Positions 2,608 through 47,796 are shown, counted from the first letter of the stretch. The stretch is 64,000 nucleotides of DNA from Chitinophagales bacterium (GCA_019694975.1 JAIBAY010000004.1:378516-442515); one strand, 5' to 3'. The notes: generated by a model from the letters alone, not told the origin. Numbers and translations: made by a program.

Positions 2608-2644
2608 AGAAAAATTGAACAGATAGATCAGCGGGGCAGATTGC

Positions 2645-2812
2645 ATTGGATATTGAATATTGATTATTGAATATTGATTATTGAATATTGAATATTGATT
2701 ATTGGATATTGAATATTGAATATTCAACACCCAACACTCAACACCCAACACTCAACATTCAACACTCAACATTCAACATCCAACACTCAACACTCAATAT
2801 TCAATTTTCAAT
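2645..2812 (-). repeat. Family-1 long AT-rich hairpin repeat (TGAATAT heptads / CAACACTCAA arm), copy H1
   Basis: The left arm is (TTGAATATTGA)n and the right arm is (TCAACACYCAACA)n, centred at 2721/2722. The arm mismatches are almost all A:C on the + strand, which become G:U on the - strand. Strand here denotes the strand on which the RNA fold is best. Confidence 0.8.
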
Positions 2813-2886
2813 ACGAATAGTCGGACTTAGTTATGAATTTAATCTTACGATGCTATCATATTTTATCCCTATAAAAACCAACTTTT

Positions 2887-3261: not shown

Positions 3262-3304
3262 GCAGTGTTTCTTAGATGAATGTGCATCAGATGCTTTCAT
3301 TGAC

Positions 3305-3470
3305 ATTCAATCATTCATCATTGAATATTGAATATTGGATATTGAATATTGGATATTGAATATTGAATATTCAACACTCAACACTCAACATTCAACATTC
3401 AACACTCAACACTCAACACGCAACGCTAACTACTCACTTTTAACTTTTCACCACTCACCACTCACCAAAC
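3305..3470 (-). repeat. Family-1 hairpin repeat, copy H2 (with CACTCAC-rich tail)
   Basis: Same arm order as H1 (TTGAATATTGG... then CAACACTCAACA...). The tail ACTACTCAC...CACCACTCACCACTCACC is the reverse complement of the head of the copy at 47117. Confidence 0.8.
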
Positions 3471-3476
3471 CCAACC

Positions 3477-5069: not shown

Positions 5070-5110
5070 CGTTTGCACCATCCATAGGATGGATCCAGAC
5101 ACAGAAAAGA

Positions 5111-5190
5111 ATTGAGTGCTGAATATTGAATTTTCAATACTGGATATTGAAAATTTTGATACACTCAACACTCAATTTTTAATAACCAAT
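5111..5190. repeat. Family-1 hairpin repeat, short copy H3
   Basis: ATTGAGTGCTGAATATTGAATTTTCAATACTGGATATTGAAAATTTTGATACACTCAACACTCAAT. It has an outer stem ATTGAGTG/CACTCAAT and an inner stem GAATATTGAA/TCAATAC. Confidence 0.6.
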
Positions 5191-5368
5191 TTTTGTCCAC
5201 TTACGACGTCCCTTCCGACTACCTTTAGCATTTAACTCTCTATTTTCTTATCCTCAGAAAAGTTGCAGTGAAAGCGCAAGCACAAACTATATTAAGAGCC
5301 AAAGTAGTGGCGAATCAAAAACGTGTTTCTTAAAATATTTATTATTTTTCACAAATAAAATAAGCTTT

Positions 5369-5791
5369 ATGGAAACTACTCCAAATTCTCAATCACGAAC
5401 TGAATTAGATTCTGCACGTTTTCTTAAGATGCAATCAAATCTCCATCAAGTTCTTTCTGAATTAAATGAAGGAACATGGATTCGTTTATTAAAGAATGGT
5501 GTCTGGCGCATTTTTCAACTGATCTCCTGGCTGATGTGCATTGCCATGTTGATATTTGCATTTTGGATACCAACAACATTAAATGCTATGATTTATTCAG
5601 ACCAGGATACGCAAATTTCACTTCATGCAAGCAATACGGAATTTTCAGCTATCATTTGGGCCGTCAAAGCAATTTTTATTGTCTCAGGATTAACCTTTGC
5701 TATTATAGCCGTTCTTATTGGAGGAATTGTTTCGCGAAATAATCGATTGCAATCAATCTTTGAAAGATTTAAGCAGATTGATGTGATGTAA
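5369..5791 (+). CDS. hypothetical small membrane protein (2-3 TM)
   Basis: 140-aa ORF with hydrophobic segments (ISWLMCIAMLIFAFWIP, IFIVSGLTFAIIAVLIGGIV). It is AT-rich, has no recognisable motif, and is inserted between mak and glgB. Confidence 0.5.
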   Translation: METTPNSQSRTELDSARFLKMQSNLHQVLSELNEGTWIRLLKNGVWRIFQLISWLMCIAMLIFAFWIPTTLNAMIYSDQDTQISLHASNTEFSAIIWAVKAIFIVSGLTFAIIAVLIGGIVSRNNRLQSIFERFKQIDVM

Positions 5792-5807
5792 GTTTTAAAC
5801 TTTGGTA

Positions 5808-5975
5808 CTCCGTTAGTCCGGATTTTTTTCCAATCCGGACTAACGGAGAAGAGGATTTCTAATCCTCACATATTTCACAAAGCTTCACAGCACCTCTCCG
5901 ATAGTCCGGACCTTTTTCCAATCCGGACCTGATGACAAAAGGATTTGTTAGTCCTCGCTATTTCTCGAACTTTCA
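5808..5975 (-). repeat. Family-2 mosaic repeat (terminal two-hairpin module), two tandem ~85-bp units in reverse orientation
   Basis: Unit 1 has a perfect 17-bp stem, CTCCGTTAGTCCGGATT (5808-5824) / AATCCGGACTAACGGAG (5832-5848), followed by AGGATTTCTAATCCT. Unit 2 (about 5893-5975) is a diverged copy. The reverse complement matches GGATTAAAAAATC...CCGGATTGGAAATAAATCCGGACTAAC at 30760-30818. Confidence 0.8.
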
Positions 5976-6215
5976 CAGTCCTTCCCATACTCTATAAATC
6001 TTATCTTGCCCAGGTTTAGCGAAGCATGACACGTTTCTTATTCGATAAGAAAGATCCCGCTATTCTTCATGGCAAAGCAGTATTTTTCAATGAGTAATTC
6101 CACCCCGCTGTCTCATTCTGATGAAAACAGCGGGTTAGGTATTACTTTTAGGAAAAAGTCCGTGTAATAACAGATACCATTCAAAAAAATGAAAACAGCA
6201 CAATAGCTGATAAAT

Positions 6216-8285: not shown

Positions 8286-8329
8286 GAAATCTTCGCTGTG
8301 TCTAATGATCCAGCAAGTTATGTTGAAAT

Positions 8330-9432
8330 TGAGTGTTCAATATTGAATATTCATTACTGAATATTGAAAAAATCAATACTCAATATCCAACGCCCAATAT
8401 TCAATAACCAATGTAGGTTCTTGCCCAGGGCCGGCGTCCTCGCCGAGCTAGATGCAAGCATTACTATTCAAGTAATGTAAATGATTAGCGAGGAAGCCAA
8501 CGACTGGCAACAATTGGATATTGAATATTGAATATTCATTATTGAATATTGAAAAAATCAATACTCAATATCCAACACCCAATATTCAATAATCAAGGTA
8601 GGTTCTTGCCCAAGGTCGGCGTCCTCGCCGAACAAACTGCAAGCTGTATCAGTTATGAAATGTAAATGATTAGCGAGGAAGCCAACGACTGGCAACAATT
8701 GGATATTGAATATTGAATATTCATTATTGAATATTGAAAAAATCAATACTCAATATCCAACACTCAATATTCAATAATCAATGTAGGTTCTTGCCCAAGG
8801 TCGGCGTCTTCTCTGATCTAACGGCAAGCGGTATTAGTCTTTGAATTCAAATGTTTGACTAAGAAGCCAACGACTGGCAACAATTGGATGTTGAATATTC
8901 ATTACTGAATATTGAAAAAACCAACACTCAATATCCAACACCCAATATTCAATAATCAATGTTGGCACTTGCCCAAGATCGGTGTCTTCTCTGATCTAAC
9001 GGCAAGCGGTATTAGTCTTTGAATTCAAATGTTTGACAAAGAAGCCAACGACTGGCAACAATTGAATATTGAATATTCATTATTGAATATTAAAAAAATA
9101 AATACTCAATATCCAACACCCAATATTCAATAATCAATGTTGGCACTTGCCCAAGATCGGTGTCTTCTCTGATCTAACGGCAAGCGGTATTAGTCTTTGA
9201 ATTCAAATGTTTGACAAAGAAGCCAACGACTGGCAACAATTGGATGTTGAATATTGAATATTCATTACTGAATATTGAAAAAATCAATACTCAATATTCA
9301 ACACTCAAGATTCAATAACCAATGTTGGCACTTGCCCAATGTCGGCGTCCTCGCCGAACATTGGATATTGAATATTCATTACTGAATATTGAAAAAATCA
9401 ATACTCAATATCCAACACTCAATATCCAATTT
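8330..9432. repeat. Tandem array of ~7 structured units (period ~177-186 bp, last unit ~114 bp): family-1 hairpin plus a ~110-bp multi-hairpin spacer module
   Basis: The hairpin loops GAAAAAATC recur at about 8366, 8551, 8736, 8914, 9091, 9277 and 9391. The spacer modules of units 4 and 5 are identical. Units 1-2 and units 3-5 carry different sequences that keep the same stems (TCGGCG..CGCCGA versus AGATC..GATCT). Confidence 0.85.
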
Positions 9433-9681
9433 TCTGCTTTTGAAAGAAGTCGGTGGTTAGTATTCTTTGCACATCTGCCGGCTATGGAATAGCAATATCG
9501 GGTGAGTGTGCCCGGCGAGGGCATTGATTTATTCAATCCTTTTTGTTCTTTTTTGCCGCTAACTTGATATTGCTGTATCACAAAGCATTGGGAAGCCGGA
9601 AGATGCATTTTGTAGTTTCAAATATTACAATCTGATAGTCAATCACTTATATCGGTCAGAATATTTTTTTTAAGCGCATAG

Positions 9682-9711
9682 TTGTAACTTCAGAAAATGA
9701 CTTTACCTTTG
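9682..9711 (+). promoter_or_regulatory. candidate Bacteroidota sigma-A promoter for the 23S-5S unit
   Basis: TACCTTTG (9704-9711) fits the -7 consensus TAnnTTTG. GTTG at 9681-9684 lies 19 nt upstream, in the position of the -33 TTTG element. The site is about 240 nt upstream of 23S. Confidence 0.35.
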
Positions 9712-9868
9712 TGTCCCGCTTTTGAAAAAGCACCCCCTTAAAAGTTCCTTTAAAACAACTGATTCTCCTCTGTATAAAAGCAGGAGTATTGCCTTGAACG
9801 GCTGATCGGTTACCGGTTCAGTGATGCCTCAGCAGATAAGCTCATCTGTGTTGACGCAAGCTGAATAA

Positions 9869-9900
9869 TGTTCTTTGACATATTGAAACGGAAGTACAAT
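9869..9900 (+). promoter_or_regulatory. rrn leader: boxA-like element and 5' strand of the 23S processing stem
   Basis: TGTTCTTTGACAT resembles boxA (TGCTCTTTAACAA). TGACATATTGAAACGGAAGTACAAT (9877-9900) is complementary to ATTGTATTTCCGTTTTTCAATATTGTCA (12869-12896) just 3' of 23S. Confidence 0.6.
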
Positions 9901-9949
9901 TAATTAAAAATCATTAACAATACTCAAAATCGAGTGCGAGATATTGAAG

Positions 9950-12846
<2,897 letters not shown>

Positions 12847-12868
12847 TCTATTTTTTTATTTTTCTTTG

Positions 12869-12896
12869 ATTGTATTTCCGTTTTTCAATATTGTCA
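12869..12896 (+). other. 3' strand of the 23S processing stem
   Basis: Complementary to 9877-9900 (see the leader feature). This is the typical RNase III-type stem that encloses 23S. Confidence 0.55.
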
Positions 12897-12977
12897 CGAT
12901 TTATTAAGTCTGAAGTTGTCAGTCCTTGGTCGTTAGTTTTCTTTCACTAAGTGTTGCTGCTTCTCACTAAAGATTTT

Positions 12978-13087
<110 letters not shown>

Positions 13088-13092
13088 TCCTA

Positions 13093-21966: not shown

Positions 21967-22749
21967 TTATGATTGCCCGCTGAGCATGATTTCTATTCCG
22001 CCAAATGAATTCCATACATAAGAAATGGTTGCCGTGCTGCCTGGAAGAAGATTTAGCATTAGTTTATTGGAACTATAGATCAGGCCCCGCCGAAGCTGGA
22101 CTTCATATTTTCCCTGTTCGAGAGAAAATTTATAAGTCAGTTTGTTAACGAGTATTTCACCAATTTTTTTACCATTGACTAATACGTTTATGTTGCTTTC
22201 ACTCTGGAGGAAACCCGGAGCCTTGTTAAAAAAACATAGTTGTGCTTTTTGCAATGACTCATTGGGGCGCCGGCTGGGGAATTTTTGAAGATATTTGGTT
22301 AAGCCATGAACGCCATTTTTAAATGCATCAAAATCTGTGTCTAACTTGAATTGCTCTGCATTTACCAGGCTGACAAGGCTCGAAGGCAAATCCATTTTGT
22401 GTGGTTTTTGGGCTTTGTCGAGCAAGACAACCACCAATGGTATTTTCTTTTCGAGGGCTTTTTCCAGTTCCATCCGTACAGGATCATCCGCCCTGTCAAT
22501 CTTACGGGCTCTGCCTTCATTGCCGGTCGTGGCATTTAACCAATTGTGTCCGATGATGGCTAGTACAACATCTGAATTCTCCAGTTCTTTTATCATCTTT
22601 TTTTCAAAGTCCTGGCCAACCTTGATCTTTTCCGTGTCTATGAATACCTCAATCGGATACTCTGCTGTGCTTAAACGTAACAATGCTTTTTCCAATGCAT
22701 GTGATTCATGCAAACTGTCATCCCGGCGGTAACTGAGAAAGAAACGCAT
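21967..22749 (-). CDS. TIR-domain protein with PEGA-like C-terminal beta domain (TIR-A)
   Basis: 260 aa. The N-terminus is MRFFLSYRRDD, followed by VFIDTEKIKVGQDF, SDVVLAIIGHNWL and DPVRMELEKALEKKIPLVVVLLD (TIR_2 pattern with a conserved Glu). The C-terminal ~100 aa read INVLVNGKKIGEI...GKYEVQL. Confidence 0.8.
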   Translation of the reverse strand: MRFFLSYRRDDSLHESHALEKALLRLSTAEYPIEVFIDTEKIKVGQDFEKKMIKELENSDVVLAIIGHNWLNATTGNEGRARKIDRADDPVRMELEKALEKKIPLVVVLLDKAQKPHKMDLPSSLVSLVNAEQFKLDTDFDAFKNGVHGLTKYLQKFPSRRPNESLQKAQLCFFNKAPGFLQSESNINVLVNGKKIGEILVNKLTYKFSLEQGKYEVQLRRGLIYSSNKLMLNLLPGSTATISYVWNSFGGIEIMLSGQS

Positions 22750-22762
22750 ACTGTTTAAAAAT

Positions 22763-23524
22763 TTAGTTCTCTGACCTTAGTGAAAGCGTACCCCAATGCG
22801 CATTTCGATCTGCATATAAAACAGACACCTGTTGAGATCTGACTTTTATTCGGCATTCGCATTGTTTGCCAACTTTATTGCCCGGTTTGATTGCAACAAT
22901 ATGTTCTCCGGGAATAACCTTGTGTTCAAATGTTTTGTTTATCAACTGCAAGGTTCCCACTGTTTCATTATCAATCAAAATAATGGCAGGAGGATATTCT
23001 GTTTCGAGGTAGTGGCTGATGAACCCCCCTTTTTTGGTGCGAATCTGAATAGTGCCATATTCAACAGATGGGAGCCATGCACTCTCGTCTCCGGGAGACC
23101 TAAGCATTTCAACAACCTGCATTACATCTTTCTCAAAAGAAGTATTCCTGATGGTGGCGGCATGTATGGTTGCAAAGGCAGTTAATGAAGGCGGGATATC
23201 CTGCTTCCCGGGCATTCTTGCTTCATCAATCAGCAGTGGGGCAATACGGATGTGAGTGTTTTTCAGCGCAGCAGTCAATTCCCGGTTTACATAGTCGCCC
23301 GGCGCATTTAGTATCGTAGCGGATTGTTTGACCGTGCGTAGCCAGTTTTTTCCTATCACCACCAACACCACATCCATATCTCTGATTATTGAATCAATGG
23401 TTGCAGCAGTTGTCTGTGGGTTACTTTGTTTAACTTCTAATGCTGGTAAATGCTCCTGTATATACAGACGGAGTCTTCCTACAAAACCTTTGTCATCCGG
23501 ATGATAGCTTATATATAGACGCAT
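22763..23524 (-). CDS. divergent TIR-domain protein with PEGA-like C-terminal beta domain (TIR-B)
   Basis: Start taken at ATG 23524 (MRLYISYHPDD); the ORF track starts at a GTG at 23554. Motifs are MDVVLVVIGKNWL and DYVNRELTAALKNTHIRIAPLLID. The C-terminus reads AIILIDNETVGTL...GEHIVAI. It ends 13 nt upstream of the TIR-A start. Confidence 0.7.
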   Translation of the reverse strand: MRLYISYHPDDKGFVGRLRLYIQEHLPALEVKQSNPQTTAATIDSIIRDMDVVLVVIGKNWLRTVKQSATILNAPGDYVNRELTAALKNTHIRIAPLLIDEARMPGKQDIPPSLTAFATIHAATIRNTSFEKDVMQVVEMLRSPGDESAWLPSVEYGTIQIRTKKGGFISHYLETEYPPAIILIDNETVGTLQLINKTFEHKVIPGEHIVAIKPGNKVGKQCECRIKVRSQQVSVLYADRNAHWGTLSLRSEN

Positions 23525-23845
23525 ATCAAAAAAATTAAAGCCGTTGTGAGTCACTACAGCGCACTGAAAAAGGTGTTGACCAATATTCCGCCCTCTCTTT
23601 AATGCACAAATTAACGGAATAAAACTTTATGTATTTTGATAATATTAATCTTATTGCCGCAACAAACAGCTGATATAATACCAGGATTTTATGGAATAAG
23701 GCAGTGTATTATTTCACTGCAGCTTACTATGTTTTGAATAATGGTGATTGGAGTATTTTCAAAGTTTATGGGATTGGGTCAGTTGTTGGTCCGGGTTTCC
23801 ACAGGCTTCAATGAGGCCGGCAATCGTGAAAAATGCCGGGCAAGA

Positions 23846-23912
23846 GGATTATCAGGATTTCCAAACTCAATATTCATTACCCGACGCCCAATATCCAATC
23901 TTCAATATCGGG
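23846..23912. repeat. degenerate fragment of the intergenic repeat families
   Basis: GAGGATTATCAGGATTTCC followed by ACTCAATATTCATTACCCGACGCCCAATATCCAATCTTCAATATCGG, which resembles the right arm of the array hairpins. Confidence 0.5.
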
Positions 23913-25864: not shown

Positions 25865-25887
25865 TGTGCCTGGTCAGATTTCAGGGA

Positions 25888-25918
25888 AAGAGGCATCCGG
25901 AAGGGTGCCTCTTTTTTA
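25888..25918 (+). terminator. rho-independent terminator
   Basis: AAAGAGGCA-TCCGGAAGGG-TGCCTCTTT followed by TTTTATTT. Confidence 0.8.
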
Positions 25919-26047
25919 TTTATCTGTCTTGAGTTATTGATGCCATTGCTGTACTTTGAAAAGCGCTATAGGAAGCACTGGCCAAAAACCTATTAAAGTT
26001 TCAGGGCAGGATAAGGATTCATAAATCGCACCTATCTTCTTGCAGCA

Positions 26048-26845
26048 TTAATATTTTTCTTCAGCAAAGTCCACCCAGCCTTTCTCAAAGTCAGATTCGC
26101 TTACACCTAAAACAGTTTGGATGTCAACGTAGGATGTAATCAAAACGGGCAATTTGTCTTTGCCCCATGTCTCAACTATATATTCGATAATAGTGTAACC
26201 AACATTATAAATTTGATTGCTTTGGTTCAATTCATTCAGGGTAAGATTTTTTCTCATCCCATACTTCACACTGATGTTATTTACGATATGCGCTTCGTAG
26301 TCGCAGATTGCCTCCCAAAACCATTGGGGATATTCCTTGCTAAACTTCTCTTCAAACATTTTGTCAAAATCTCCGGTGTCCTCATTGCCCCATCTTCCCT
26401 GTTCTTCTTTTATAAGAATGTTCAGCTGAATGCAATGCGTAAATTCATGAATCGCTGTCTTTACCGGATCATCGGGAAGAATGCTGTTATACCAGTTTGT
26501 CCAAAGTAAATGAAATTCGTTGGGGCCGCGGCTTACACCGTTTGCATTACTGTTTAAAAGTCCTGTAGCTTTATTAAAGTCGGCCTGTGCCGGATGAACA
26601 AATACCCGGATTGTATCGTGGTCCGGATCATTCAAATCTGTCCTGATGCTGTTGTAATTTTCTTCCAGGTTGTCAGCAAGGTCTTGTGCTTCTTCTGTGT
26701 AAATCCCCTGATATGAAATGATAAAATGATCAGTTCTGCATTCTGTTAATTTGTCCACGACCGTAAAACTTCGAAAGGTCTTCATACCGAAGCAGGTAAT
26801 GACCAGTCCGCCAAATATTAATAGAATGGTTTTTAGTTTCTGCAT
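26048..26845 (-). CDS. putative MA-clan zinc metallopeptidase-like protein (HExxH), membrane-anchored or secreted
   Basis: 265 aa with an N-terminal hydrophobic anchor (ILLIFGGLVITCFG). It has an HExxH motif (AIHEFTHCIQ) and a downstream Glu-rich helix (WFWEAICDYEAH). Confidence 0.55.
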   Translation of the reverse strand: MQKLKTILLIFGGLVITCFGMKTFRSFTVVDKLTECRTDHFIISYQGIYTEEAQDLADNLEENYNSIRTDLNDPDHDTIRVFVHPAQADFNKATGLLNSNANGVSRGPNEFHLLWTNWYNSILPDDPVKTAIHEFTHCIQLNILIKEEQGRWGNEDTGDFDKMFEEKFSKEYPQWFWEAICDYEAHIVNNISVKYGMRKNLTLNELNQSNQIYNVGYTIIEYIVETWGKDKLPVLITSYVDIQTVLGVSESDFEKGWVDFAEEKY

Positions 26846-26899
26846 TGTCCTTTAATTGCTATCTCTTAACTATCGACGGGTCTCTGTAAAAAGCGTTTT

Positions 26900-27052
26900 G
26901 CTGCCAACGGTTGCCAGCCTTGCATTGATGCCGTTGGTCTTTGCAAAGCGTTGAGGGAAGCAGAGACCAACAAGCTGTTAAAGATACAAGGCAGAATGCG
27001 GATTGGACATCCGATTCTCTATCTGTTCCGACCAAAAAATCAGGACTAACAT
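26900..27052 (+). repeat. Family-2 mosaic repeat, copy a
   Basis: CCGTTGGTCT-TTGCAAAGCGTTGAGGGAAGCAG-AGACCAACAAGCTGTTAAAG, then GGATTGGACATCCGATT, then a CAGGACTAAC tail. Confidence 0.75.
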
Positions 27053-27090
27053 TGCAATTTACTGCTGCTGTAAAGCGAAATGAACCAGCG

Positions 27091-27981
27091 TTATTGTGTT
27101 TCAGTATCAATGGCCTGTTGAGGTGGTGAGAGTTGATGGCGTTTCGTCCAGAAATAAACAGCAAAAAGGAGGCAAACGACTGGCAGCACTGCGCCAAACT
27201 CATCGACGTAATATTTTGTGTTGCCGGTATCAGCGGTAAGTGGTGTAAATATCATTTGAATAAACAGGTTATGACTGCCGTGAAGCAATACTCCTGTCCA
27301 AAGACTCCCTGACCGCAGGCGAAACCATGTAAAAATGAAACTGAGTCCAATCACCATCGCGGTGAAACAACTCAGTGCATAACAGGCAGACGTGCCGCTG
27401 TTGTAATCTGCAAAAAGTAAAATGGGATAATGCCAAAGCGCCCAGATGATTGCTGCTACGATTGCTGTTTTAGTATAGCCCAGTTTTTTGTACAACTCCG
27501 GTACCAGGAAACCGCGCCAACCTATTTCTTCACCTAAAGCGGTGGCGCAACTGCTGGGAAGTCCATAGAGCGCACCGAGGATAAAAAAGAAAGCAATCGT
27601 AACTGCGGTTGGTAAAGTTCCGAAACCGAAATTGTCAGTAACTGCTTTAACATAGTCATGGTTGTAAAAGCCGCCCCATCCAACTGCCCAGATTACTGAA
27701 TAGGCAATGAGTGCATACAGGAAAGGAACAAGATAACTCCAAACCTGCAAACGGGTGTTGCCCCATTGCCATCCCAACAATGATATTTTCCTGTTCAGTA
27801 TCCTTGATGTAATCAGCGCAGAGAGTCCGGGACACCACATCAGGCCGGTAACATAAAGTCCAAACCCACTGCCGATTTTTCCCGTATGAATTATGAGCAG
27901 ATAGAAAGCGGCACTCAATGAAAAAGTGATCAGCAGGAATGTGAGGATTGCTCTTATGCTTTTATCAGGTGCATCTTGCAT
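27091..27981 (-). CDS. CPBP family intramembrane glutamic endopeptidase (CAAX/Abi type)
   Basis: 296 aa, polytopic. It has motif 1 EEIGWRGFL, motif 2 ALWHYP and motif 3 HGSHN. Confidence 0.85.
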   Translation of the reverse strand: MQDAPDKSIRAILTFLLITFSLSAAFYLLIIHTGKIGSGFGLYVTGLMWCPGLSALITSRILNRKISLLGWQWGNTRLQVWSYLVPFLYALIAYSVIWAVGWGGFYNHDYVKAVTDNFGFGTLPTAVTIAFFFILGALYGLPSSCATALGEEIGWRGFLVPELYKKLGYTKTAIVAAIIWALWHYPILLFADYNSGTSACYALSCFTAMVIGLSFIFTWFRLRSGSLWTGVLLHGSHNLFIQMIFTPLTADTGNTKYYVDEFGAVLPVVCLLFAVYFWTKRHQLSPPQQAIDTETQ

Positions 27982-28180
27982 AGTGTATCTGTTTCTGTTA
28001 AATATAATACTAATCTTATCGGAAGCTCATGAGCATCTTAACCGATTGAAAACTGTTGGGAAACAGATCCGGTTGAGCGGAGATTCTCAATACTCCGGCG
28101 CTGCCGGATGTTGCTACCAGCTTATCGCTATTTTTTTGTCGATGGATTTTTATTGCGGCCTAAGTGAAGGGTATTGCTGC

Positions 28181-28338
28181 AGTTGTTGGTCTTTGCAAAG
28201 TACTTGGTGCCGTTGTTGGTCTTAACAGAACTTGCTGGAGGGTCAGACCAACAACCTGTTAAAGTCTCCGGGCAAATGAGGATTAGAATTCCTTTTCTCA
28301 ATCAATCCGGGATTAAAACAAAGGCCGGCTGGCGGGAG
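28181..28338 (+). repeat. Family-2 mosaic repeat, copy b (first hairpin partly duplicated)
   Basis: GTTGTTGGTCTTTGCAAAG..., then GTTGTTGGTCT-TAACAGAACTTGCTGGAGGGTC-AGACCAACAACCTGTTAAAG, then GGATTAGAATTCC, then ATCCGGGATTAAAACAAAGGCCGG. Confidence 0.75.
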
Positions 28339-28365
28339 TTTTATCTGCTGTTGTTCTAATTGGTG

Positions 28366-28788
28366 TCATTTAGTAAGTTTATATCCCATATAGCTGCCCA
28401 GAAATTTTGCCGTATTGGCAAGTGCAAAAATTAAAATGTAATCAGACCATTTCACGCCCGCTGCTGTAATGATGATGACGTCCAGCAACAGGTACAGGAG
28501 CGGGAAAAGAATTACCAGTTTGAACACATCCCGGTATTCTTTTTTCTTCCAGTATCGTGCAACCAGGAAAAAAATGATAAATCCGAAAATACCGGAGATA
28601 TAAGGGGCAGAATCATTGGCATGTGCCTCATACACACTTTCTTGCTGTCCCGGGTTTATAAGATAGGAATACACAGCAACTTCAGCGAATGAAATAAGCA
28701 CCAGAGTTATCATTGTCAATAACACCAGTCCGATTAGTTTCGGAATCACAAACTTCTTCATAGGCTTCAGTTCTGTTTTACTATACAC
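28366..28788 (-). CDS. hypothetical small membrane protein (4 TM)
   Basis: 140-aa ORF with four hydrophobic segments and no recognised motif. The start could instead be the internal MKKFVIPK. Confidence 0.5.
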   Translation of the reverse strand: MYSKTELKPMKKFVIPKLIGLVLLTMITLVLISFAEVAVYSYLINPGQQESVYEAHANDSAPYISGIFGFIIFFLVARYWKKKEYRDVFKLVILFPLLYLLLDVIIITAAGVKWSDYILIFALANTAKFLGSYMGYKLTK

Positions 28789-28799
28789 ATTTGTACGCC

Positions 28800-28930
28800 G
28801 ATATTGGTCTTTGCCTCACGTTGAAGGAGGCATTGATCAATAACCTGTTAAAGATTACTGAAAGACGGAGGAACAAAAATCCTTTTCTCCGTACGTCCTG
28901 GTTTAAAATAAATCCGGACTGACTGGAGGT
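28800..28930 (+). repeat. Family-2 mosaic repeat, copy c
   Basis: ATATTGGTC-TTTGCCTCACGTTGAAGGAGGCAT-TGATCAATAACCTGTTAAAG (the stem is kept through changed bases), then GGAACAAAAATCC, then TTTAAAATAAATCCGGACTGAC. Confidence 0.75.
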
Positions 28931-28983
28931 TTGTGCTTCTTCTTCGTTGGTCATAGATTTCTGTGCAAGCGCATCAGAACAGC

Positions 28984-29463
28984 TTACTTATTTTCTAACA
29001 TGTTTGTAGCAGTTTTATCACCAAGTTGTTCAGCCAGTCCTATAAGTAGTCCTTCGGTACCACGAATGTAGCAGAGCTTGTACATGTCTCCAAACCGAAC
29101 CACTTCTCCAACGAGTTTTGCACCATGTTTTAAAAGCCTGGTTAGCAATTCGTCAAGATTGTCGACCCTAAACATGACTCTCAAATAGCCAAGAGCATTC
29201 ACCGGTGCTTTTCTATGGTCAGCTATAGTCTTTGGGTTGTGAAATTGTGAAAGTTCAAGCCTGCTGTGCCCATCCGGAGTTACCATCATGGCAATTTCCA
29301 CTTGTTGATTCTCAAGGCCTGTTACCCGTCCGGCCCACTCCCCTTCCACCTTCATTCGACCTTCGAGTGACAGTCCGATTTCTGTGAAAAATGAAATGGC
29401 ATTGTCAAGAGATTCCACCACAATGCCGACATTGTTCATTTCCATTAGTTTACTTTTTGACAT
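28984..29463 (-). CDS. VOC family protein (glyoxalase/bleomycin-resistance/dioxygenase fold)
   Basis: 159 aa with MNNVGIVVESLDNAISFFTEIGLSLEGR and a second beta-alpha-beta-beta-beta module. Confidence 0.8.
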   Translation of the reverse strand: MSKSKLMEMNNVGIVVESLDNAISFFTEIGLSLEGRMKVEGEWAGRVTGLENQQVEIAMMVTPDGHSRLELSQFHNPKTIADHRKAPVNALGYLRVMFRVDNLDELLTRLLKHGAKLVGEVVRFGDMYKLCYIRGTEGLLIGLAEQLGDKTATNMLENK

Positions 29464-29496
29464 GATTTAAGATTTCGTTAAAGTTCTTTGCTCGGG

Positions 29497-29630
29497 AATT
29501 GTTTTTTGCAAAACGCTGAGAGATAAATAGACCAACAACCGGAGAAGGATTCCACGCAGGCTGCGGCTTAAAATCTGCTTCTCCATCAGTCCGGATTGGA
29601 GATAAATCAGCACTAACAGCTGATAGTAAA
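29497..29630 (+). repeat. Family-2 mosaic repeat, copy d (left arm of the first hairpin degenerate)
   Basis: TTTGCAAAACGCTGAGAGATAAAT-AGACCAACAACC, then GGATTCC...AAAATC, then CATCAGTCCGGATTGGAGATAAATCAGCACTAACAG. Confidence 0.7.
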
Positions 29631-29705
29631 TTAGTGGCATTAAATTCCTCCATGTCCCCTCGGGAGACACGGAGGCGGTGAAAATGGTGCCTGAATGATG
29701 AACGG

Positions 29706-29933
29706 TCATTGATTGGTGGAGACTTTACCGTCATCAACATATTCCAGGATATCGCCGGGCTGGCATTCCAGGGCTTTGCAAATGGCTTCGAGGGTACTGA
29801 AGCGGATGGCTTTGGCCTTTCCGGTCTTTAAGATCGAAAGGTTCGATAAGGTCAGATCCACTTTTTCAGAAAGCCTGTTGAGTGAGATCTTCCTTTTGGC
29901 CATCATCACATCTAAGTTTACAATGATTGGCAT
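29706..29933 (-). CDS. XRE/YozG-type helix-turn-helix transcriptional regulator
   Basis: 75 aa: NLDVMMAKRKISLNRLSEKVDLTLSNLSILKTGKAKAIRFSTLEAICKALECQPGDILEY. Confidence 0.88.
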   Translation of the reverse strand: MPIIVNLDVMMAKRKISLNRLSEKVDLTLSNLSILKTGKAKAIRFSTLEAICKALECQPGDILEYVDDGKVSTNQ

Positions 29934-29936
29934 AGA

Positions 29937-30473
29937 TTATACAGTTAAATCATTTTCGTTTTGAATATCTACGCCTTTTTGGAAAATAGTCGCTATGATA
30001 TAGATTACAGCCCCCATCATAATGAATGCTTGGCTGTCTGCCCAAAATTGATCTAAGTTGTCCGGGACAAAACCGTGATGCATTAAAGTTTTAGCTGACT
30101 GTCTGGCGATGTAGCTTAACAGTCCGATTGAAAGCGTGTAATAACTGATTTGTGAAATTTGTCTTGAAACGAAACTGTTGAACGGTTTAGACAATTCCAT
30201 TTTGTGCATCAGCCTGATAACTATGTAAAACAAGCAAGCTTTTAAAATTGAAATGATCAGGATAAAGCTATAGATACCGAAAAATGCGAGTCTGCTGTCT
30301 TTATACATTTGCGTTAAGTCCAGCTTTTGATAAAGATTTTGGACGAATTCAGGCTTGTAAAGACTGAAAAAGAAATTTACAATTAAGCCTCCTGCTTCAA
30401 TAGACAAGCCTACAAAAATGAGCCAAGCCACAATGTATAGACCCCAGAATACGAAGTTGTTTGTTTTCGACAT
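29937..30473 (-). CDS. DUF2975-like membrane protein (upstream partner of the YozG-type HTH)
   Basis: 178 aa with 4-5 TM segments. It ends 3 nt before the HTH start. The DUF2975 + small HTH pairing is a recurrent two-gene module. Confidence 0.6.
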   Translation of the reverse strand: MSKTNNFVFWGLYIVAWLIFVGLSIEAGGLIVNFFFSLYKPEFVQNLYQKLDLTQMYKDSRLAFFGIYSFILIISILKACLFYIVIRLMHKMELSKPFNSFVSRQISQISYYTLSIGLLSYIARQSAKTLMHHGFVPDNLDQFWADSQAFIMMGAVIYIIATIFQKGVDIQNENDLTV

Positions 30474-30599
30474 GGTTGTTAAAGTTTAAAGTTATGCCGC
30501 AAAGGTAATTAAAAATTATTGATAAACAATAAATAATGATTTAATATCAAAATATTTTTGTCGAATGTTCTCTTTTAGCGGTGTCGTCAGTTCCAATGA

Positions 30600-30818
30600 C
30601 CGCAACCGTATTGCACCTACCGGAAGGTGGAGATTCAGGGGCACTTCACTGTCAGCGAACCAGAAAGTTTGATAGCAGCACAAGGCTTGATTTAATAAAA
30701 GGTAAGCGGACACCTGATGGTGAAGGGTCTCAGTGGACGCTGGTGGCAGAAGGTGGACGCGGATTAAAAAATCTGCTTATCCATCAGCCCGGATTGGAAA
30801 TAAATCCGGACTAACAGG
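30600..30818 (+). repeat. Family-2 mosaic repeat, copy e (first module degenerate, terminal module well conserved)
   Basis: CAGCGAACCAGAAAGTTTGATAG is a degenerate form of CAGAGACCAACAAGCTGTTAAAG. The terminal module GGATTAAAAAATC...CATCAGCCCGGATTGGAAATAAATCCGGACTAACAGG is well conserved. Confidence 0.65.
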
Positions 30819-30999
30819 TGAGCAGGAGGATGGACTTTATAAAAAAGTGCTGGATAAGTTTTTCAATGGTAAGTTGGACGAGAAAACAACTGCACTGATA
30901 AAAGAATAATTTTGAAATGCCTTGAGACTGATGGCTGCATGTATTACGCATGCTGCCTGATTCATTACAAAACCATTGCATTTAACCTGATCCTGTTTT

Positions 31000-32748
31000 A
31001 TGGAGCATGAAGTAAGCGATCCTTTAAAGAAAGCAGCGGGAGAAGCACCTGTAAGATCCAATGCCGCGACCGGCTGGAGGAAATGGGTGCCCGGCTTGCA
31101 GATGATTGCCAATTATAAACTGCATTGGTTAGCCAATGACCTGATGGCCGGCCTCGTGCTAACGACCATGCTGGTGCCGGTGGGCATCGCATACGCTGAA
31201 GCATCGGGCGTGCCCGGCATCTATGGCCTTTATGCAACGGTGCTGCCACTGTTGGCGTATGCCTTATTTGGCCCGAGCCGTATCATGGTGCTGGGCCCCG
31301 ACTCATCATTAGCTCCTATCATTCTTGCTGTATTACTGCCACTGTCGATGGGTAACCCTGAAAATGCAATCGCACTGGCAGGGATGATGGCGCTGGTTTC
31401 AGGTATCGTCTGCATACTGGCCGGTGTGTTTAAGCTGGGGTTTATTACTGAGTTGCTCTCCAAACCAATCCGGTATGGCTACATGAATGGTATTGCACTC
31501 ACCGTGTTGATCAGTCAGCTTCCCAAGATGCTGGGGTTCAGCATTGAGAGCACGGGACCGTTGCGCAACATGGTGCGTATCATTGAAACCGTCGCGGATG
31601 GAAAGACCAACTATGCCAGCCTCCTGATTGGTCTCAGCACGCTGATCGTGATTATGTTTCTGAAACGTTACAAACGCGTGCCCGGCATCCTCATCGCTGT
31701 GGTGGGTGCAACCATCGTAACGGCCATCTGGCAGCTTGACTTAACACATGGATTGAAAGTTCTGGGTTCGCTGCCGCAAGGTTTACCGGCATTCAGGTTA
31801 CCGTTAATAGATATAGACGACCTGCAAACGGTGATTATCGGCGGATGCACGGTAGCCCTTGTTTCTTTTGCCGATACCAGTGTGTTATCACGTATCTACG
31901 CTGCGAAAACAAAAACACCTGTTGATCCCAACCAGGAAATGATTGGCCTTGGTGCAGCTAACCTGGCAGCCGGTTTTTTCCAAGGCTTTCCCATCAGCAG
32001 CAGTTCATCACGCACACCCGTAGCGGAAGCATCAGGCGCCAAAACACAACTCACCGGTGTGGTGGGCGCGCTGGCAGTGGCCTTGCTTTTATTTTTCGGA
32101 GCCGACTTATTGAAGAGTCTGCCCAACAGTGCATTGGCAGCGGTGGTGATTGCTTCCGCGATCGGATTGTTTGAACTGGGTGACCTTGGAAGAATTTTTC
32201 GCATACAGCGTTGGGAATTCTGGTTATCCATCGTCTGCTTCGCAGGGGTGGCAGTATTTGGTGCCATACCCGGAATAGGGCTGGCCATTGTGCTGGCAGT
32301 GATTGAATTTTTATGGGACGGATGGCGTCCTCATTTTGCAGTGCTTGGCCGTGTAGAAGGCATTCGCGGTTATCATGATATCATGCGGTATCCTGATGCG
32401 GAATTAATACCCGGGCTGTTGCTGTTCCGTTGGGATGCGCCTTTATTTTTTGCCAATGCCGCTTTGTTCCAGGAAGAAATCCTGAAGCAGGTTTCGGATT
32501 CACCAACACCCGTCAAACGCATTGTAGTAGCTGCAGAACCTGTTACAAGCGTTGACATCACTTCGGCAGACATGCTTACTGACCTGAAAAAGGAACTGGA
32601 TGCAAGGCAGATAGCATTGCATTTTGCCGAAATGAAAGATCCGGTAAAAGACAAGCTTAAGCGATTTGAATTGCTGCAAGTGCTTGGCACTGATATTTTC
32701 TTTCCCACTATAGGTTCAGCAGTTGAAAATTATCTGGATACTTATTAA
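31000..32748 (+). CDS. SulP family inorganic anion transporter with C-terminal STAS domain
   Basis: 582 aa with DLMAGLVLTTMLVPVGIAYAEASGVP and QEMIGLGAANLAAGFFQGFPISSSSSRT. The STAS tail includes LFRWDAPLFFANA. Confidence 0.9.
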   Translation: MEHEVSDPLKKAAGEAPVRSNAATGWRKWVPGLQMIANYKLHWLANDLMAGLVLTTMLVPVGIAYAEASGVPGIYGLYATVLPLLAYALFGPSRIMVLGPDSSLAPIILAVLLPLSMGNPENAIALAGMMALVSGIVCILAGVFKLGFITELLSKPIRYGYMNGIALTVLISQLPKMLGFSIESTGPLRNMVRIIETVADGKTNYASLLIGLSTLIVIMFLKRYKRVPGILIAVVGATIVTAIWQLDLTHGLKVLGSLPQGLPAFRLPLIDIDDLQTVIIGGCTVALVSFADTSVLSRIYAAKTKTPVDPNQEMIGLGAANLAAGFFQGFPISSSSSRTPVAEASGAKTQLTGVVGALAVALLLFFGADLLKSLPNSALAAVVIASAIGLFELGDLGRIFRIQRWEFWLSIVCFAGVAVFGAIPGIGLAIVLAVIEFLWDGWRPHFAVLGRVEGIRGYHDIMRYPDAELIPGLLLFRWDAPLFFANAALFQEEILKQVSDSPTPVKRIVVAAEPVTSVDITSADMLTDLKKELDARQIALHFAEMKDPVKDKLKRFELLQVLGTDIFFPTIGSAVENYLDTY

Positions 32749-32777
32749 ATGGAGAAGAAGGGATGATGCCTGCCTTT

Positions 32778-32830
32778 GCCGTTGTTGGGCTTAACAAAGC
32801 TTGCGCGAGGCGCAGACCAACAACCTGCGC
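32778..32830 (+). repeat. Family-2 repeat, first-hairpin module only (copy f)
   Basis: GTTGTTGGGC-TTAACAAAGCTTGCGCGAGGCGC-AGACCAACAACCTG, immediately after the sulP stop. Confidence 0.65.
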
Positions 32831-32969
32831 CACAGTTACCCATACATGTTAACGGAAGTTATCTCAAAATACCCTGAGTCATCCTGTCCCGATTGATAGG
32901 GATCAGTAGCTCTTCAATTCATTGACAGATGGCCAAATAGATTCGGCATGTCAGCACTGATTGCTGTTT

Positions 32970-33875
32970 TTATTTTTTACCAATCAGATCCTGCAAGGCG
33001 GCCTCCAGTGAGGGGAAATGAAATACAAATCCCCGGCCGGCAATCTTTTCCGCCGAACATCTTGTGCTCATCGTCAGTGTTTGTGCAAACCCGCCCAATG
33101 CCAGCTGTAAGGCAAATGACGGAACCGGAATGTTCAGCTTTTTCCGCTTCAGTGCTTTGGCTATGCTGTTCAACAAAATCATGTATCGTTCAGGCGAAGG
33201 TGATACGGCATTGAATGCACCCTGCATGGTTTCATCATCCAATGCATGCAGGTAGATGCCGCAAAGATCGGCTATGTGAATCCAGGGATAAAACGGCAGG
33301 CCGTTGCCGAATACCGGTGCTATGCCAAACCTGACAGGCATTACCAGCCTGGGAAGTGCGCCACCTTCAACGGCGAGCACAATGCCGGTACGTAGGCTTA
33401 CCACTCTTTTGTTCAGCGATGCAATCCTGTTCACTGCCTGTTCCCACTGCAGGCAGGTGGTGGCCAAAAAATCATCGCCCGCTTGCGCGTCTTCCTTGAG
33501 CCATTCATCTCCGCGGCTGCCGTAATAACCTGTAGCGGAGGAGGCGATGATGGCCTTCACCTTATTGGGAGTACGTTGAAGAGCGGTATAAAGCAATTCA
33601 GTGCTGCGGATGCGGCTTTGCAGAATTTCTGCTTTGTAGCTATTGGTCCAGCGGTGGTTACCAACATTAGCGCCCGCCATGTGGATGATATAATCTGCCT
33701 CGCTGATGCATGCATCATCAATTTCATCCCGCGCCGGATCCCAGTGATAAGCAGTGATGCTGCCCTGTGCTTTTTGCCTGCTCAGGTGTGCAACCTTATG
33801 GCCACGCTGCTGCAAGAGTTTGGTAAGATGGCTGCCGATTAGACCCGAACCGCCGCTGATTAGTATGTTCTTCAT
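32970..33875 (-). CDS. TIGR01777-family NAD-dependent epimerase/dehydratase-like oxidoreductase (YfcH-like, DUF1731 C-terminus)
   Basis: 301 aa with the Rossmann motif ILISGGSGLIGSHL. The C-terminus is RCSAEKIAGRGFVFHFPSLEAALQDL. Confidence 0.85.
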   Translation of the reverse strand: MKNILISGGSGLIGSHLTKLLQQRGHKVAHLSRQKAQGSITAYHWDPARDEIDDACISEADYIIHMAGANVGNHRWTNSYKAEILQSRIRSTELLYTALQRTPNKVKAIIASSATGYYGSRGDEWLKEDAQAGDDFLATTCLQWEQAVNRIASLNKRVVSLRTGIVLAVEGGALPRLVMPVRFGIAPVFGNGLPFYPWIHIADLCGIYLHALDDETMQGAFNAVSPSPERYMILLNSIAKALKRKKLNIPVPSFALQLALGGFAQTLTMSTRCSAEKIAGRGFVFHFPSLEAALQDLIGKK

Positions 33876-41193: not shown

Positions 41194-41502
41194 CAACCTC
41201 TAAAAATGCAGAAGCTATCTTAAAACAGGCAATGAATGCTGTTATGCCGGATTTTTTCCGGCATCTGTCAATGAATGGAAAGGATCCTGATCCCGATCCC
41301 AATCAATCGGGACAGGATGACTCCGGGTATTATGAGATAGCTGTAATTATAAACCCTAAGGCAGCATCAATAGTATTACCTGTGATGCAAGCGGCGCATT
41401 ACGCCGGCACGACTGATTGATCAAAAAAAATAAACGGCAGTTTATGGAATCGGGCGGAAGCCATGCATCTATGGACAGTAACGCATACTTAATCTGCTGC
41501 CA

Positions 41503-45750: not shown

Positions 45751-47115
45751 ATGACTATCCGACTGATTCATTATCCGGCAGCGGACAATTCCGTATGCGT
45801 GGCGACACCTTCCAGGTCAAATGGATGGCCCGCAGTTGTCACAGCACGGCAGGTATTACTGCGCATTGCCTTTTTCACATGCATGATGTTTTTGCTGTCA
45901 CCTGATGCCATTGCCCAGAAATTTGTGCCCGGCTATGTATTGCTCAACAACGGTGATACACTACAGGGATTGATTGGTGAAGAGAACTGGGTGAAAGCGC
46001 CGGTGAAGGTTTTATTTAAGAAGTCGGCAGCGGAAAGGGTACACGCATATTCTCCGCTCCTCATTCATTCTTTTCGCATCAAAGATGGCGACTGGTATTT
46101 CAGTTTTGTGGGCGATATTGATCCTTCTTCCTTACTTGACGATCAGCTGGATTATAACCCGTTTCCGGATACGATGCGTGTTTACATGTTTATCCGTTCC
46201 ATCGTAATGGGTAAAATCAGCCTCTATTATGCCCGCGATATGAATGACCGTTTGCATCTGTTCATTCAGAAAGATGGCGGCGTGATAGCAGAGCTGAAAT
46301 ATAAAAAGTATTACCTGGATGAAAGAGTGGTGGCAGACTACCGCAACGAGATTACCAGGCGCGCCATCATGGCCAACCAGATTTACAAAGAACAGCTTAC
46401 CAACCTGATGGCGGATTGTCCGGCCGTTGCCACGGGAATTGTTTCCAGGCCGCTGTCCTATTCAAAGAACGATATCATGAAGCTGGTGATCGAATACAAT
46501 CATTGCAAGGGTTCGAGGAAAGGTTATACGGAAGAAAAGGAACCCTGGAAGCTGGAAGTACGCGCACATCTTGGTATCAACTATTCCGGATTGAAGTTTA
46601 AAAGTTCAGGCAATACGTATGTTGGTAATTCACAGTTTGACAACAGTCTTGGGTATGCGTCCGGGCTGTCCTTTAATGCGGTGTTGCCCCGCACTGACAA
46701 CAGCTGGGGGATTTATAATGAAGTACTGATCCGCAATTTTAATTCAACAGGCGTTTCGGGAACAACACCATTCAAAGAACAACGGCCTGTGCAAATGGAT
46801 CTTATCTATGTTAAGCTGGGAACAATGGCAAGATACCGGTTTACCAGGTCTGTCGTTCAGCCATTCCTTGCTGCGGGTATCACCAACAGCATCGCGATAA
46901 AATCAGAAAACCTTGAAACAGACACTGCCGGCATCACCAGCAACTTCCTGCAGTACTTCCGCAATTATGAACAAGGGTTGTTGTTCGGAGCGGGTTTGCA
47001 ATGGAAGGCAATCTCCGGTGAGGTACAACTAGAGTTCTCCAATGGCATGTCAGGTTACTCCGATGTGAAGAGTGCTTTCAGTACATTGTACTTGTTGGTG
47101 GGGTATAAGTTTTAA
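45751..47115 (+). CDS. putative outer-membrane beta-barrel protein, paralog of 13413..14657
   Basis: 454 aa. GYVLLNNGDTLQGLIGEENW and the C-terminal TLYLLVGYKF parallel the 13413 protein along its whole length. The exact start is uncertain because the N-region before the signal peptide is long. Confidence 0.6.
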   Translation: MTIRLIHYPAADNSVCVATPSRSNGWPAVVTARQVLLRIAFFTCMMFLLSPDAIAQKFVPGYVLLNNGDTLQGLIGEENWVKAPVKVLFKKSAAERVHAYSPLLIHSFRIKDGDWYFSFVGDIDPSSLLDDQLDYNPFPDTMRVYMFIRSIVMGKISLYYARDMNDRLHLFIQKDGGVIAELKYKKYYLDERVVADYRNEITRRAIMANQIYKEQLTNLMADCPAVATGIVSRPLSYSKNDIMKLVIEYNHCKGSRKGYTEEKEPWKLEVRAHLGINYSGLKFKSSGNTYVGNSQFDNSLGYASGLSFNAVLPRTDNSWGIYNEVLIRNFNSTGVSGTTPFKEQRPVQMDLIYVKLGTMARYRFTRSVVQPFLAAGITNSIAIKSENLETDTAGITSNFLQYFRNYEQGLLFGAGLQWKAISGEVQLEFSNGMSGYSDVKSAFSTLYLLVGYKF

Positions 47116-47116
47116 G

Positions 47117-47445
47117 GTGAATAGTGAGTAGTGAGTGTTGGATATTGAGTGTTGAATATTGAGTGTTGGATATTGAGTGTTAAATATTGAGTGTTAAATA
47201 TTGAGTATCGGATATTGAGTGTTGAATATTGAGCGTTGAATATTCAGTATCCTATATTGAGTGTTGAAAATTTAAAGTTCAATATTCAATATTCAATATC
47301 CAATATCCAATATCCAATATTCAATATTCAATATTCAATATCCAATATCCAATATCCAATATCCAATATCCAATATCCAATATCCAATAACCAATATTCA
47401 ATATCCAATAACCAATAATCAATATTCAATATCCAATAACCACTG
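47117..47445 (+). repeat. Family-1 giant hairpin, inverted orientation, with a (CAATATY)n microsatellite arm
   Basis: The left arm is (GAGTGTTGRATATT)n over 47130-47268, the loop is about 47269-47277, and the right arm is a run of CAATATT/CAATATC heptads reaching about 47440. Its mismatches are G:T on the + strand. Confidence 0.85.
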
Positions 47446-47796
47446 ATTATCATTTATTGAAAGGATTTCTGGCTTTGCAATAAATGAGACTATCCGTAAA
47501 CAACAATACAGTATGGTTGTTAATGCAGGATGAGAGTCGGTATGGAATCATTTTCAAGGTAAGATTGAGCCTTATGAATTTTCGGCAGTTTCCATTTTTA
47601 GAACAGGCATCATCCATTTGAATATGTTTACAGTCCGGCATATACCATCAAATTTTAAAATGCGGGCGGAACCGTTGAAGACAATGTTTGCAAACCATTT
47701 TTCACCGAGCTGTGATTTGCCGGAACTACTTTTACCCTTTCATTTTTATTTTCATGGGTTGTGCTTCGTGGTGCGGCCTGCATTTCATTGCATCAA

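Follow-up and report, generated by a model that had tools for sequence, protein, structure and literature searches.

A modular palindromic repeat between co-directional genes of a Chitinophagales bacterium, a candidate Bacteroidota counterpart of BIME and BOX elements

To our knowledge, small interspersed repeats are known mainly from Proteobacteria, Firmicutes and Neisseria, and hardly any families have been described in Bacteroidota. Here we describe a repeat element in a 64-kb stretch of DNA from a Chitinophagales bacterium (GCA_019694975.1, JAIBAY010000004.1:378516-442515; hereafter the window), where its copies punctuate a string of six co-directional minus-strand genes at 26048-30473. 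The census of the element and the description of its distribution were confined to this window. We interpret the element as probably a new, lineage-restricted and non-coding family of modular palindromic repeats, the Bacteroidota counterpart of BIME and BOX elements.

The functions of the known families used for comparison are those given in PMC3049150. The bacterial interspersed mosaic elements (BIMEs) of Escherichia coli combine palindromic units and conserved linker motifs in varied mosaics. They are strictly extragenic, lie often between co-directional genes or at 3' ends, are not terminators, are co-transcribed, and commonly occur as partial or solitary units. The element resembles them in each respect, co-transcription being probable in its case. 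It differs in its host phylum (Bacteroidota), in its unrelated and AT-richer sequence, in its stems of 11 and 15-17 bp with large loops, where the repetitive extragenic palindromes (REPs) are GC-rich and 20-40 nt long, and in units that neither alternate in orientation nor carry a GTAG or CGTC tag. The BOX elements of Streptococcus pneumoniae (PMC3049150) share with it a modular build of ~130-160 nt with modules absent or multiplied, an intergenic position, predicted stem-loops on transcription, spurious open reading frame (ORF) calls and a supposed mobilisation in trans. However, boxA and boxC pair as terminal inverted repeats whereas the modules of the element fold singly, BOX orientation mirrors coding bias (~61%) whereas all composite copies of the element share one orientation, and the two have no sequence similarity.

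Other families are less close. Enterobacterial repetitive intergenic consensus (ERIC) and Correia (NEMIS) sequences are likewise structured repeats of ~120-160 nt transcribed in operons, and orientation- or RNase-dependent effects on mRNA stability have been shown for them (PMC3049150). They are, however, single long imperfect palindromes with terminal inverted repeats, similar to miniature inverted-repeat transposable elements, or MITEs, whereas the element is a chain of three independent hairpins without a terminal inverted repeat; its ends (TGCCGTTGTTGG... and ...GGACTAACRG) do not form an inverted-repeat pair. REPs and REPINs are described in PMC3733652 as GC-rich palindromes of 20-40 nt with a GTAG or CGTC tag at the stem foot. 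This tag is absent from H1 (TGCC|GTTGTTGGTCT) and H3 (CTCCGTTAGTCCGGATT), the first and third hairpins of the element. Lineage-restricted hairpin repeats, vertical inheritance and stability between close strains are common to REPINs and the element, but here there are no inverted doublets and, among the ORFs scanned in the window, no gene for a REP-associated tyrosine transposase (RAYT) or IS200-like protein. The Pfam and domain scan behind this and the following statements on window ORFs covered 26 of ~37, with a 2250-aa ORF and the rRNA left aside.

Modules of the element and their arrangement

The element consists of two modules. M1 is the hairpin H1 with the linker CTGTTAAAG, and M2 joins the hairpins H2 and H3. 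The H1 module is 51 nt long and is usually followed directly by the linker, which is among the best conserved segments of the alignment. M2 (~70 nt) contains a weak H2 of variable sequence, with a stem of 4-7 bp, and a strong H3 with a stem of 15-17 bp (CTCCGTTAGTCCGGATT/AATCCGGACTAACGGAG in copy g1). The modules occur together, solitary, in tandem or halved across eight intergenic loci (Table 1), so that extragenic copies are built from few conserved modules in varied combinations, as in the BIME and BOX class. The H1 modules of copies b and f are discrete 51-nt stretches of ~83-86% identity. The M2 modules of d and e are 83% identical and each other's closest relatives, and g1 and g2 stand in tandem at 70% identity. 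The remaining pairs are 52-72% identical; the value for a0 and a (72%) is barely over background. Half of an a-type H1 immediately precedes copy b and differs from the H1 variant of that copy.

We built nhmmer profiles of M1 and M2 from the element copies themselves and recovered six M1 copies with one half copy, and eight M2 copies; nothing else in the 64-kb window matches either module. The 27-nt consensus of H3, with up to three mismatches, has 3 matches in the window and none in 100 shuffles. Non-coding DNA makes up 16.6% of the window and contains all eight loci. Of the 35 gaps, eight consecutive ones hold seven of the loci (25.9-32.8 kb), and two loci, at 5.8 kb and 32.8 kb, are not part of the gene string.

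A sequence-only reading of the window had described a three-hairpin repeat filling every gap of the string, in one orientation, as well as the gap beyond the last gene. Repeats, alignment and nhmmer agree with the places it listed, with the shared orientation in a co-directional string of small genes, and with the isolated modules it had noticed after sulP (f) and, reversed and in tandem, after the gene at 5369-5791 (g1/g2, by nhmmer). Copy a0, which in the order of transcription follows the last gene of the string and adjoins the stop codon of the 26048-26845 gene, was absent from that list and was added by the nhmmer census and alignment. Two of its statements need narrowing. The gaps of copies a to d are filled, but the 3-nt HTH/DUF2975 junction holds no copy. 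The three-hairpin anatomy stands in outline, with H3 of 15-17 bp and a weak H2, but H1 of copy d and H3 of copies a and b are decayed.

All composite copies are antisense to the flanking genes, in plus-strand order H1-linker-H2-H3. Read on the mRNA strand, a gap runs from the stop codon through H3, H2, linker and H1 to the next start codon. Copies g1 and g2 lie on the opposite DNA strand beside plus-strand genes, and thus have the same relation to transcription as the copies of the array. If seven loci are taken as independent, the chance of a single orientation is ~2^-6. The cumulative GC skew climbs almost monotonically over the window. Because g1/g2 point the other way from the array copies under a near-monotonic skew, orientation tracks transcription rather than replication; an orientation set by replication is, on these few independent loci, the less likely alternative.

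Folding is uneven among the copies. Folding is significantly better than in shuffled sequences for copies a, c, e and g1/g2 (z from -2.9 to -7), but not for b and d. The z-scores on the plus and minus strands are -2.9 and -3.2 for a and -3.8 and -3.0 for c, and about -0.5 to -0.9 for d. On the gene-sense strand, e reaches -29.6 kcal/mol (z = -4.0) and g1/g2 reach -52.4 kcal/mol (z = -6.95). Both strands fold as three separate hairpins, not as one long imperfect hairpin. Pair counts indicate that the stems are kept mainly through sequence identity and decay in several copies. Covariation is weak for H1, where the observed score is matched or exceeded in 34 of 500 shuffles, and no stronger than in shuffles for H3 (422 of 500). 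The conservation of the predicted stems, to which the sequence-only reading had tied its case, stems from shared sequence, with this decay and no significant covariation, and does not support that case. Its statement that copy c keeps the H1 stem through changed bases holds for one true compensatory pair (G-C to A-T) and one G-T wobble and fails at two mismatches. The Rfam and covariance-model search that it had suggested matched no known RNA family: no family reached its gathering score, and the only matches, at E up to 5, are at chance level. Mismatches compatible with G.U pairing favour the gene-sense strand (26 versus 14), a weak hint that the functionally folding strand, if any, is the mRNA.

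The element is non-coding, since reading frames are not conserved between copies. A peptide-coding role was rejected because each frame is interrupted by stop codons and indels when copies are compared, and the 80-aa ORF called over copy d in public contigs is spurious. No hairpin followed by a T-run occurs on the minus (gene) strand in gaps a-d, although canonical terminators of this kind are present elsewhere in the window, at 25884-25917 and 32952-32966.

The Bacteroidota -7 promoter consensus is TAnnTTTG. It is strongly under-represented in the window (27 matches, 53 expected) and is found upstream of several genes. The only perfect match on the sense strand of the array is the box TACCTTTG upstream of DUF2975, and gaps a-d contain none on that strand. 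This single upstream box makes the co-transcription of all six genes from one promoter plausible. A promoter-carrying element was considered and dropped, as no TAnnTTTG box is conserved in the element. The TACCTTTG promoter box also occurs at 9704, in the region of the rRNA genes.

Table 1. Element copies, genes of the string, neighbouring features and strain coverage in the window, with differences to strain GCA_054403415.1.
Feature	Position	Strand	Description or basis	Between strains
Copy a0	25942-26051	+	degenerate H1, linker and H2, no H3; nhmmer M1 E=2.8e-13, M2 E=2.5e-4	1/106
Copy a	26926-27055	+	H1 GCCGTTGGTCT...AGACCAACAAG, linker CTGTTAAAG, H2 CGGAT/ATCCG, degenerate H3	0/130
Orphan 5' half of a-type H1 (GTTGTTGGTCTTTGCAAAG)	28178-28207	+	M1 positions 2-23, E=0.048
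Copy b	28208-28337	+	perfect 11-bp H1, linker, H2, altered (degenerate) H3	7/179 in the covered part (28159-28337), five in the H1 loop
Copy c	28796-28928	+	variant H1, linker, H2, H3	0/133
Copy d	29495-29622	+	H1 5' arm and CTGTTAAAG linker decayed or lost; H2 and H3 kept
Copy e	30750-30818	+	H2 and H3 only; right end is the breakpoint of the truncated DUF1810 gene	7/69 (10%)
Copy f	32777-32830	+	lone 51-nt H1 module; 29 nt past the sulP stop codon, convergent gap	1/54
Copies g1, g2	5808-5880, 5896-5978	-	tandem M2 without H1; 17 nt past the stop of the plus-strand gene 5369-5791
DUF6055/peptidase-MA-like HExxH gene	26048-26845	-	Pfam, weak
CPBP (Rce1-like) gene	27091-27981	-	Pfam
Four-transmembrane (4-TM) protein gene	28366-28761	-	domain scan
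VOC/glyoxalase gene	28984-29463	-	Pfam
HTH_26 gene	29706-29933	-	Pfam
DUF2975 gene	29937-30473	-	Pfam
-7 box TACCTTTG	30500-30507	-	sole perfect TAnnTTTG on the array sense strand; 26 nt upstream of the DUF2975 start
DUF1810 remnant	30819-30909	+	last ~30 codons; tblastn E=6e-9; nucleotide homology starts at 30819/30826
GCA_054403415.1, L037	23144-27755		98.9% identity
GCA_054403415.1, L032	28159-29325		99.06% identity
GCA_054403415.1, L008	29773-32980		98.6% identity
Genes				0-1.35%
Other intergenic DNA				0-3.75%

Relatives, strains and the DUF1810 breakpoint

The interval is lineage-specific: in relatives with 87-90% SulP identity, different genes stand upstream of sulP. In two of them (L002 and L003, 90% SulP identity), the gene immediately upstream is DUF1810, intact and 140 codons long, of which the window keeps a remnant. 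In copy e, 30818 is the last base of the H3 stem; homology to the relatives' DNA begins at the next base. Because the copy ends where the remnant begins, the end of the element is a DNA breakpoint. Neither the element family nor analogous repeats were found at the sulP loci of these relatives.

Several further features were seen around this breakpoint. The former stop codon of DUF1810 and the sulP promoter box TAATTTTG (30907-30914) overlap. Between strains, 1 of 181 nt differs over the DUF1810 remnant and the sulP upstream region (30819-30999), and the adjoining 30600-30818 has 16 differences; constraint thus changes sharply at the element boundary between 30818 and 30819. In L002, a Xer-like tyrosine recombinase is encoded on the minus strand (71-1186), ~300 nt upstream of the intact DUF1810-sulP pair, in the position where the window has the repeat-punctuated array. 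It scores below all curated cut-offs (IntI, 190.9 versus 265 bits).

Searches beyond the window returned little. Scanning GTDB genomes with an H1 pattern gave no Chitinophagales match, and two matches in Alphaproteobacteria and Bremerella were set aside as looking like chance. A JGI metagenome scan with the H3 pattern and viral contig scans with both patterns gave chance matches only, and plasmid blastn gave no match. Three H1-like matches (CCCCTTGTTGGTCTTTGCGGCAGGCTTGCGAGGGGTGAGACCAACAAGCTG) in two Flavobacteriales metagenome-assembled genomes (MAGs; L006 and L007) have a similar loop motif in sense orientation, followed by unrelated modules. They score ~15 bits with nhmmer, a partly circular value, as the matches were chosen by the same pattern. 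Since the scan pattern itself picked them, homology to the H1 of the element is only possible and unproven. The hairpin is embedded in other mosaic hairpin repeats, in a large intergenic region of several hairpin modules (L006, CANHQZ010000007.1, 6100-7260; L007, 6310-6507). Among these modules are a 298-nt tandem duplicate and the H1-like hairpin. The region stands upstream of a NusG-like gene, possibly where a polysaccharide locus starts. It also holds a ATGCTGAGC...GAAGCAT-type hairpin, a type widespread in Bacteroidota.

Public contigs with the genes of the array were recovered by exact-protein look-ups and carry the same gene calls. Most are 100% identical to the window, and therefore come from the same population and give no independent information. 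The MAG GCA_054403415.1 is an independent strain of the same species (98.6-99.1% identity), with no coverage of 27756-28158 and 29326-29772, the latter including copy d. Its covered stretches show the gene order of the window without structural differences, and copies a0, a, b (from 28159), c, e and f occupy the same positions. The available strain data contain no gain or loss of a gene-plus-repeat unit. The strain comparison that the sequence-only reading had proposed thus found the interval invariant, with the same genes and copies where covered. Because it rests on two strains only, ~1% apart, this test has low power.

With 0-10% divergence, conservation of the copies does not exceed that of other non-coding DNA. 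Of the five substitutions in copy b's 24-nt H1 loop, at least one moves the loop closer to that of f, and such patches of excess change may fit gene conversion between copies. The sole structural polymorphism seen is a variant allele from the same metagenomes (L018, equivalent to window positions 29426-30254). From 29935 on, its DUF2975 nucleotide sequence differs by 26%, whereas HTH, copy d and the beginning of VOC match the window exactly. The visible edge of this allele is the HTH/DUF2975 junction and not a repeat. Many Logan contigs end near 29899-29905 and 29928, close to this divergence point, which suggests several co-occurring alleles in the population.

Favoured interpretation and alternatives

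We favour a BIME/BOX-type family, a reading we consider reasonably likely, because the element is modular, extragenic, probably transcribed and prone to false ORF calls, and because its individual copies are decaying. Its modules would spread and rearrange at the DNA level, either transposed in trans by an enzyme whose gene lies outside the window or by recombination and gene conversion between copies. Only intergenic copies with one orientation relative to transcription would be retained. Transcription from the single canonical promoter upstream of DUF2975 probably includes the copies along with the six genes, and their hairpins may form in the intercistronic RNA, where any effect would most likely be that of a 3' exonuclease barrier or processing site, by analogy with REP/BIME, ERIC and Correia sequences. 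The lack of significant covariation, hairpin decay and strain divergence argue against selection on the individual copies.

Several points weigh against this interpretation. The evidence comes from eight loci in one 64-kb window, and the orientation bias rests on few independent events. Target-site duplications were not recognisable by eye at the flanks, no mobilising enzyme was seen among the window ORFs scanned, and there is no empty site or insertion polymorphism between the strains. Randomly dispersed repeats do not typically crowd into consecutive gaps as the copies do here, and a cassette array would also show such clustering and a single upstream promoter. The closest pair of copies, d and e, flanks the DUF2975-HTH unit as direct repeats. 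Copies a, c, a0 and f are almost unchanged between strains, which could reflect constraint, though the neighbouring genes are equally unchanged.

A doubtful alternative is that selection maintains the element as a cis-acting RNA module that insulates cistrons from each other or signals processing. H3 and H2 would shield the upstream cistron at its 3' end, an endonuclease would cleave the conserved, single-stranded linker CUUUAACAG, and the downstream cistron would have its 5' end capped by H1. The fixed orientation relative to transcription, the conserved linker, the G.U asymmetry towards the sense strand and the unchanged copies a and c are in line with this, and so is the spacing: H3 lies 17-84 nt past stop codons (17 at g1 and 30-84 in the array), and H1 lies ~30-80 nt before three of four start codons and ~200 nt before that of CPBP. 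However, there is no cistron to serve at e, which is upstream of the promoter, or at f and a0, which lie in convergent gaps, and g1/g2 lack H1. The hairpins are decayed in a, b and d, significant covariation is lacking, and copy e evolves at or above the neutral rate.

The sequence-only reading had seen a cassette array in the interval. Such an array would gain gene-plus-repeat units by recombination at the repeat and would express their promoterless genes, as in an integron, from the promoter at the DUF2975 end; the recombination could be due to a dedicated site-specific recombinase encoded elsewhere or to the RecA-mediated integration of repeat-carrying circles. Integron attC sites and clusters of attC sites lacking integron-integrases (CALIN) likewise show small unrelated genes in one orientation, a structured repeat of ~60-140 nt after each of them, an upstream promoter and lineage-specific repeat sequences. 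The earlier view that the genes of the string are functionally unrelated agrees with their Pfam assignments (peptidase-MA-like, CPBP, 4-TM, VOC, and HTH_26 with DUF2975). The one repeat per gap, the sole canonical -7 box at the upstream end, and an array edge at a truncated DUF1810 gene, exactly at the element end, would also fit, as would the absence of the interval from relatives with 87-90% SulP identity. So would the direct repeats around single units, d and e around DUF2975-HTH (M2 83%) and a0 and a around the HExxH gene, the latter pair at a similarity barely over background.

Against this, the element has neither the R''/L''-L'/R' boxes nor the single bulged hairpin of attC sites. When all eight gaps were scanned on both strands with the consensus, no RYYYAAC...GTTRRRY pair reached 6/7 complementary positions, and the polarity of the H1 stem (5'-GTTGTTGG...CCAACAAC-3') is opposite to that of the attC boxes. 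The copies fold as three hairpins on both strands, module content varies between them, and some modules have no gene to serve (e, f, a0). The window ORFs scanned include no Phage_integrase domain and no other recombinase or transposase domain. Strains ~99% identical have the same units and repeats, at the low power of that comparison, and the visible edge of the variant DUF2975 allele is not at a repeat. The cassette array is thus not supported, and we regard it as unlikely. A related version, in which Bacteroidota would shuffle cassettes independently of integrons with the element as recombination site and one upstream promoter, is improbable; in it, existing repeats would capture gene-plus-repeat units through an unlinked recombinase or homologous recombination. 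Under this version, the DUF1810 breakpoint and the d/e direct repeats would be footprints of capture.

Atypical terminators that would make each gene its own transcription unit are very unlikely: strong stems do stand right after stop codons (-29.6 kcal/mol for the H3 region of e and -52.4 kcal/mol for g1/g2, gene-sense), but T-runs are missing behind the hairpins on the gene strand, canonical hairpins with T-runs are in use in this genome, and gaps a-d hold no canonical promoter to restart transcription. On the favoured interpretation, the element copies are neither intrinsic terminators nor recombination sites of a cassette system.

Genomic setting and significance

The best SulP matches in protein searches are from MAGs and genomes of Chitinophagales, Parafilimonas and Taibaiella, and several window proteins have sorting domains of the type IX secretion system (T9SS). 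The gene string is bordered on one side by a plus-strand T9SS DUF4397 gene with a canonical terminator at its end, and on the other by sulP (31000-32748, plus strand). Two adjoining minus-strand genes with TIR_2 domains (21967-23554) lie beside the T9SS gene and the repeat-punctuated string and lend the 22-31 kb region the look of a defence or accessory island. One relative (L001) has TIR/ThsB-like genes near its sulP too.

The window contains at least two further intergenic repeat families, and the genome is therefore generally repeat-rich. The second family has a 7-nt period (2610-2855, 3264-3495, 5088-5193, 8305-9440, 23859-23908 and 47109-47473), with (ATTGAAT/ATTGGAT)n followed by inverted (TTCAACA/CTCAACA)n, which would form very long hairpins. 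At 8305-9440 it comprises seven tandem units of ~180-185 nt each, upstream of the 23S rRNA gene, and similar 7-nt-period repeats are present in the Flavobacteriaceae locus L007 (1012-1076). The third family has two copies of ~120 nt (32857-32970 and 41222-41342), 84% identical and in inverted orientation, each just downstream of a plus-strand gene. The copy after sulP ends with a terminator-like hairpin and T-run.

The 23S and 5S rRNA genes occupy 9952-13088 (region 8286-13088), with no 16S rRNA or tRNA genes in the 64 kb; the arrangement looks unlinked. At 661-8285, a cluster of GlgE-like, Mak-like and GlgB-like alpha-glucan genes is interrupted by a gene for a 23S-rRNA-intervening-sequence protein (2887-3261), by heptamer repeats, and by a gene for a small membrane protein followed by g1/g2. 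The 2250-aa ORF (55267-62019), probably a large repetitive surface protein, has about a dozen internal repeats of 228 nt (76 aa).

For genome annotation, the element is a warning that gene callers set spurious ORFs on such repeats, as over copy d. If the cassette interpretation were true, the array would represent a new route of gene capture. As a BIME/BOX-type family, the element offers a clean case, with independent modules, an orientation fixed relative to transcription and a precise junction with a disrupted gene. If it is abundant genome-wide, it may serve as a strain-typing marker and as a tractable case for the spread of repeats where no RAYT-like gene is evident.

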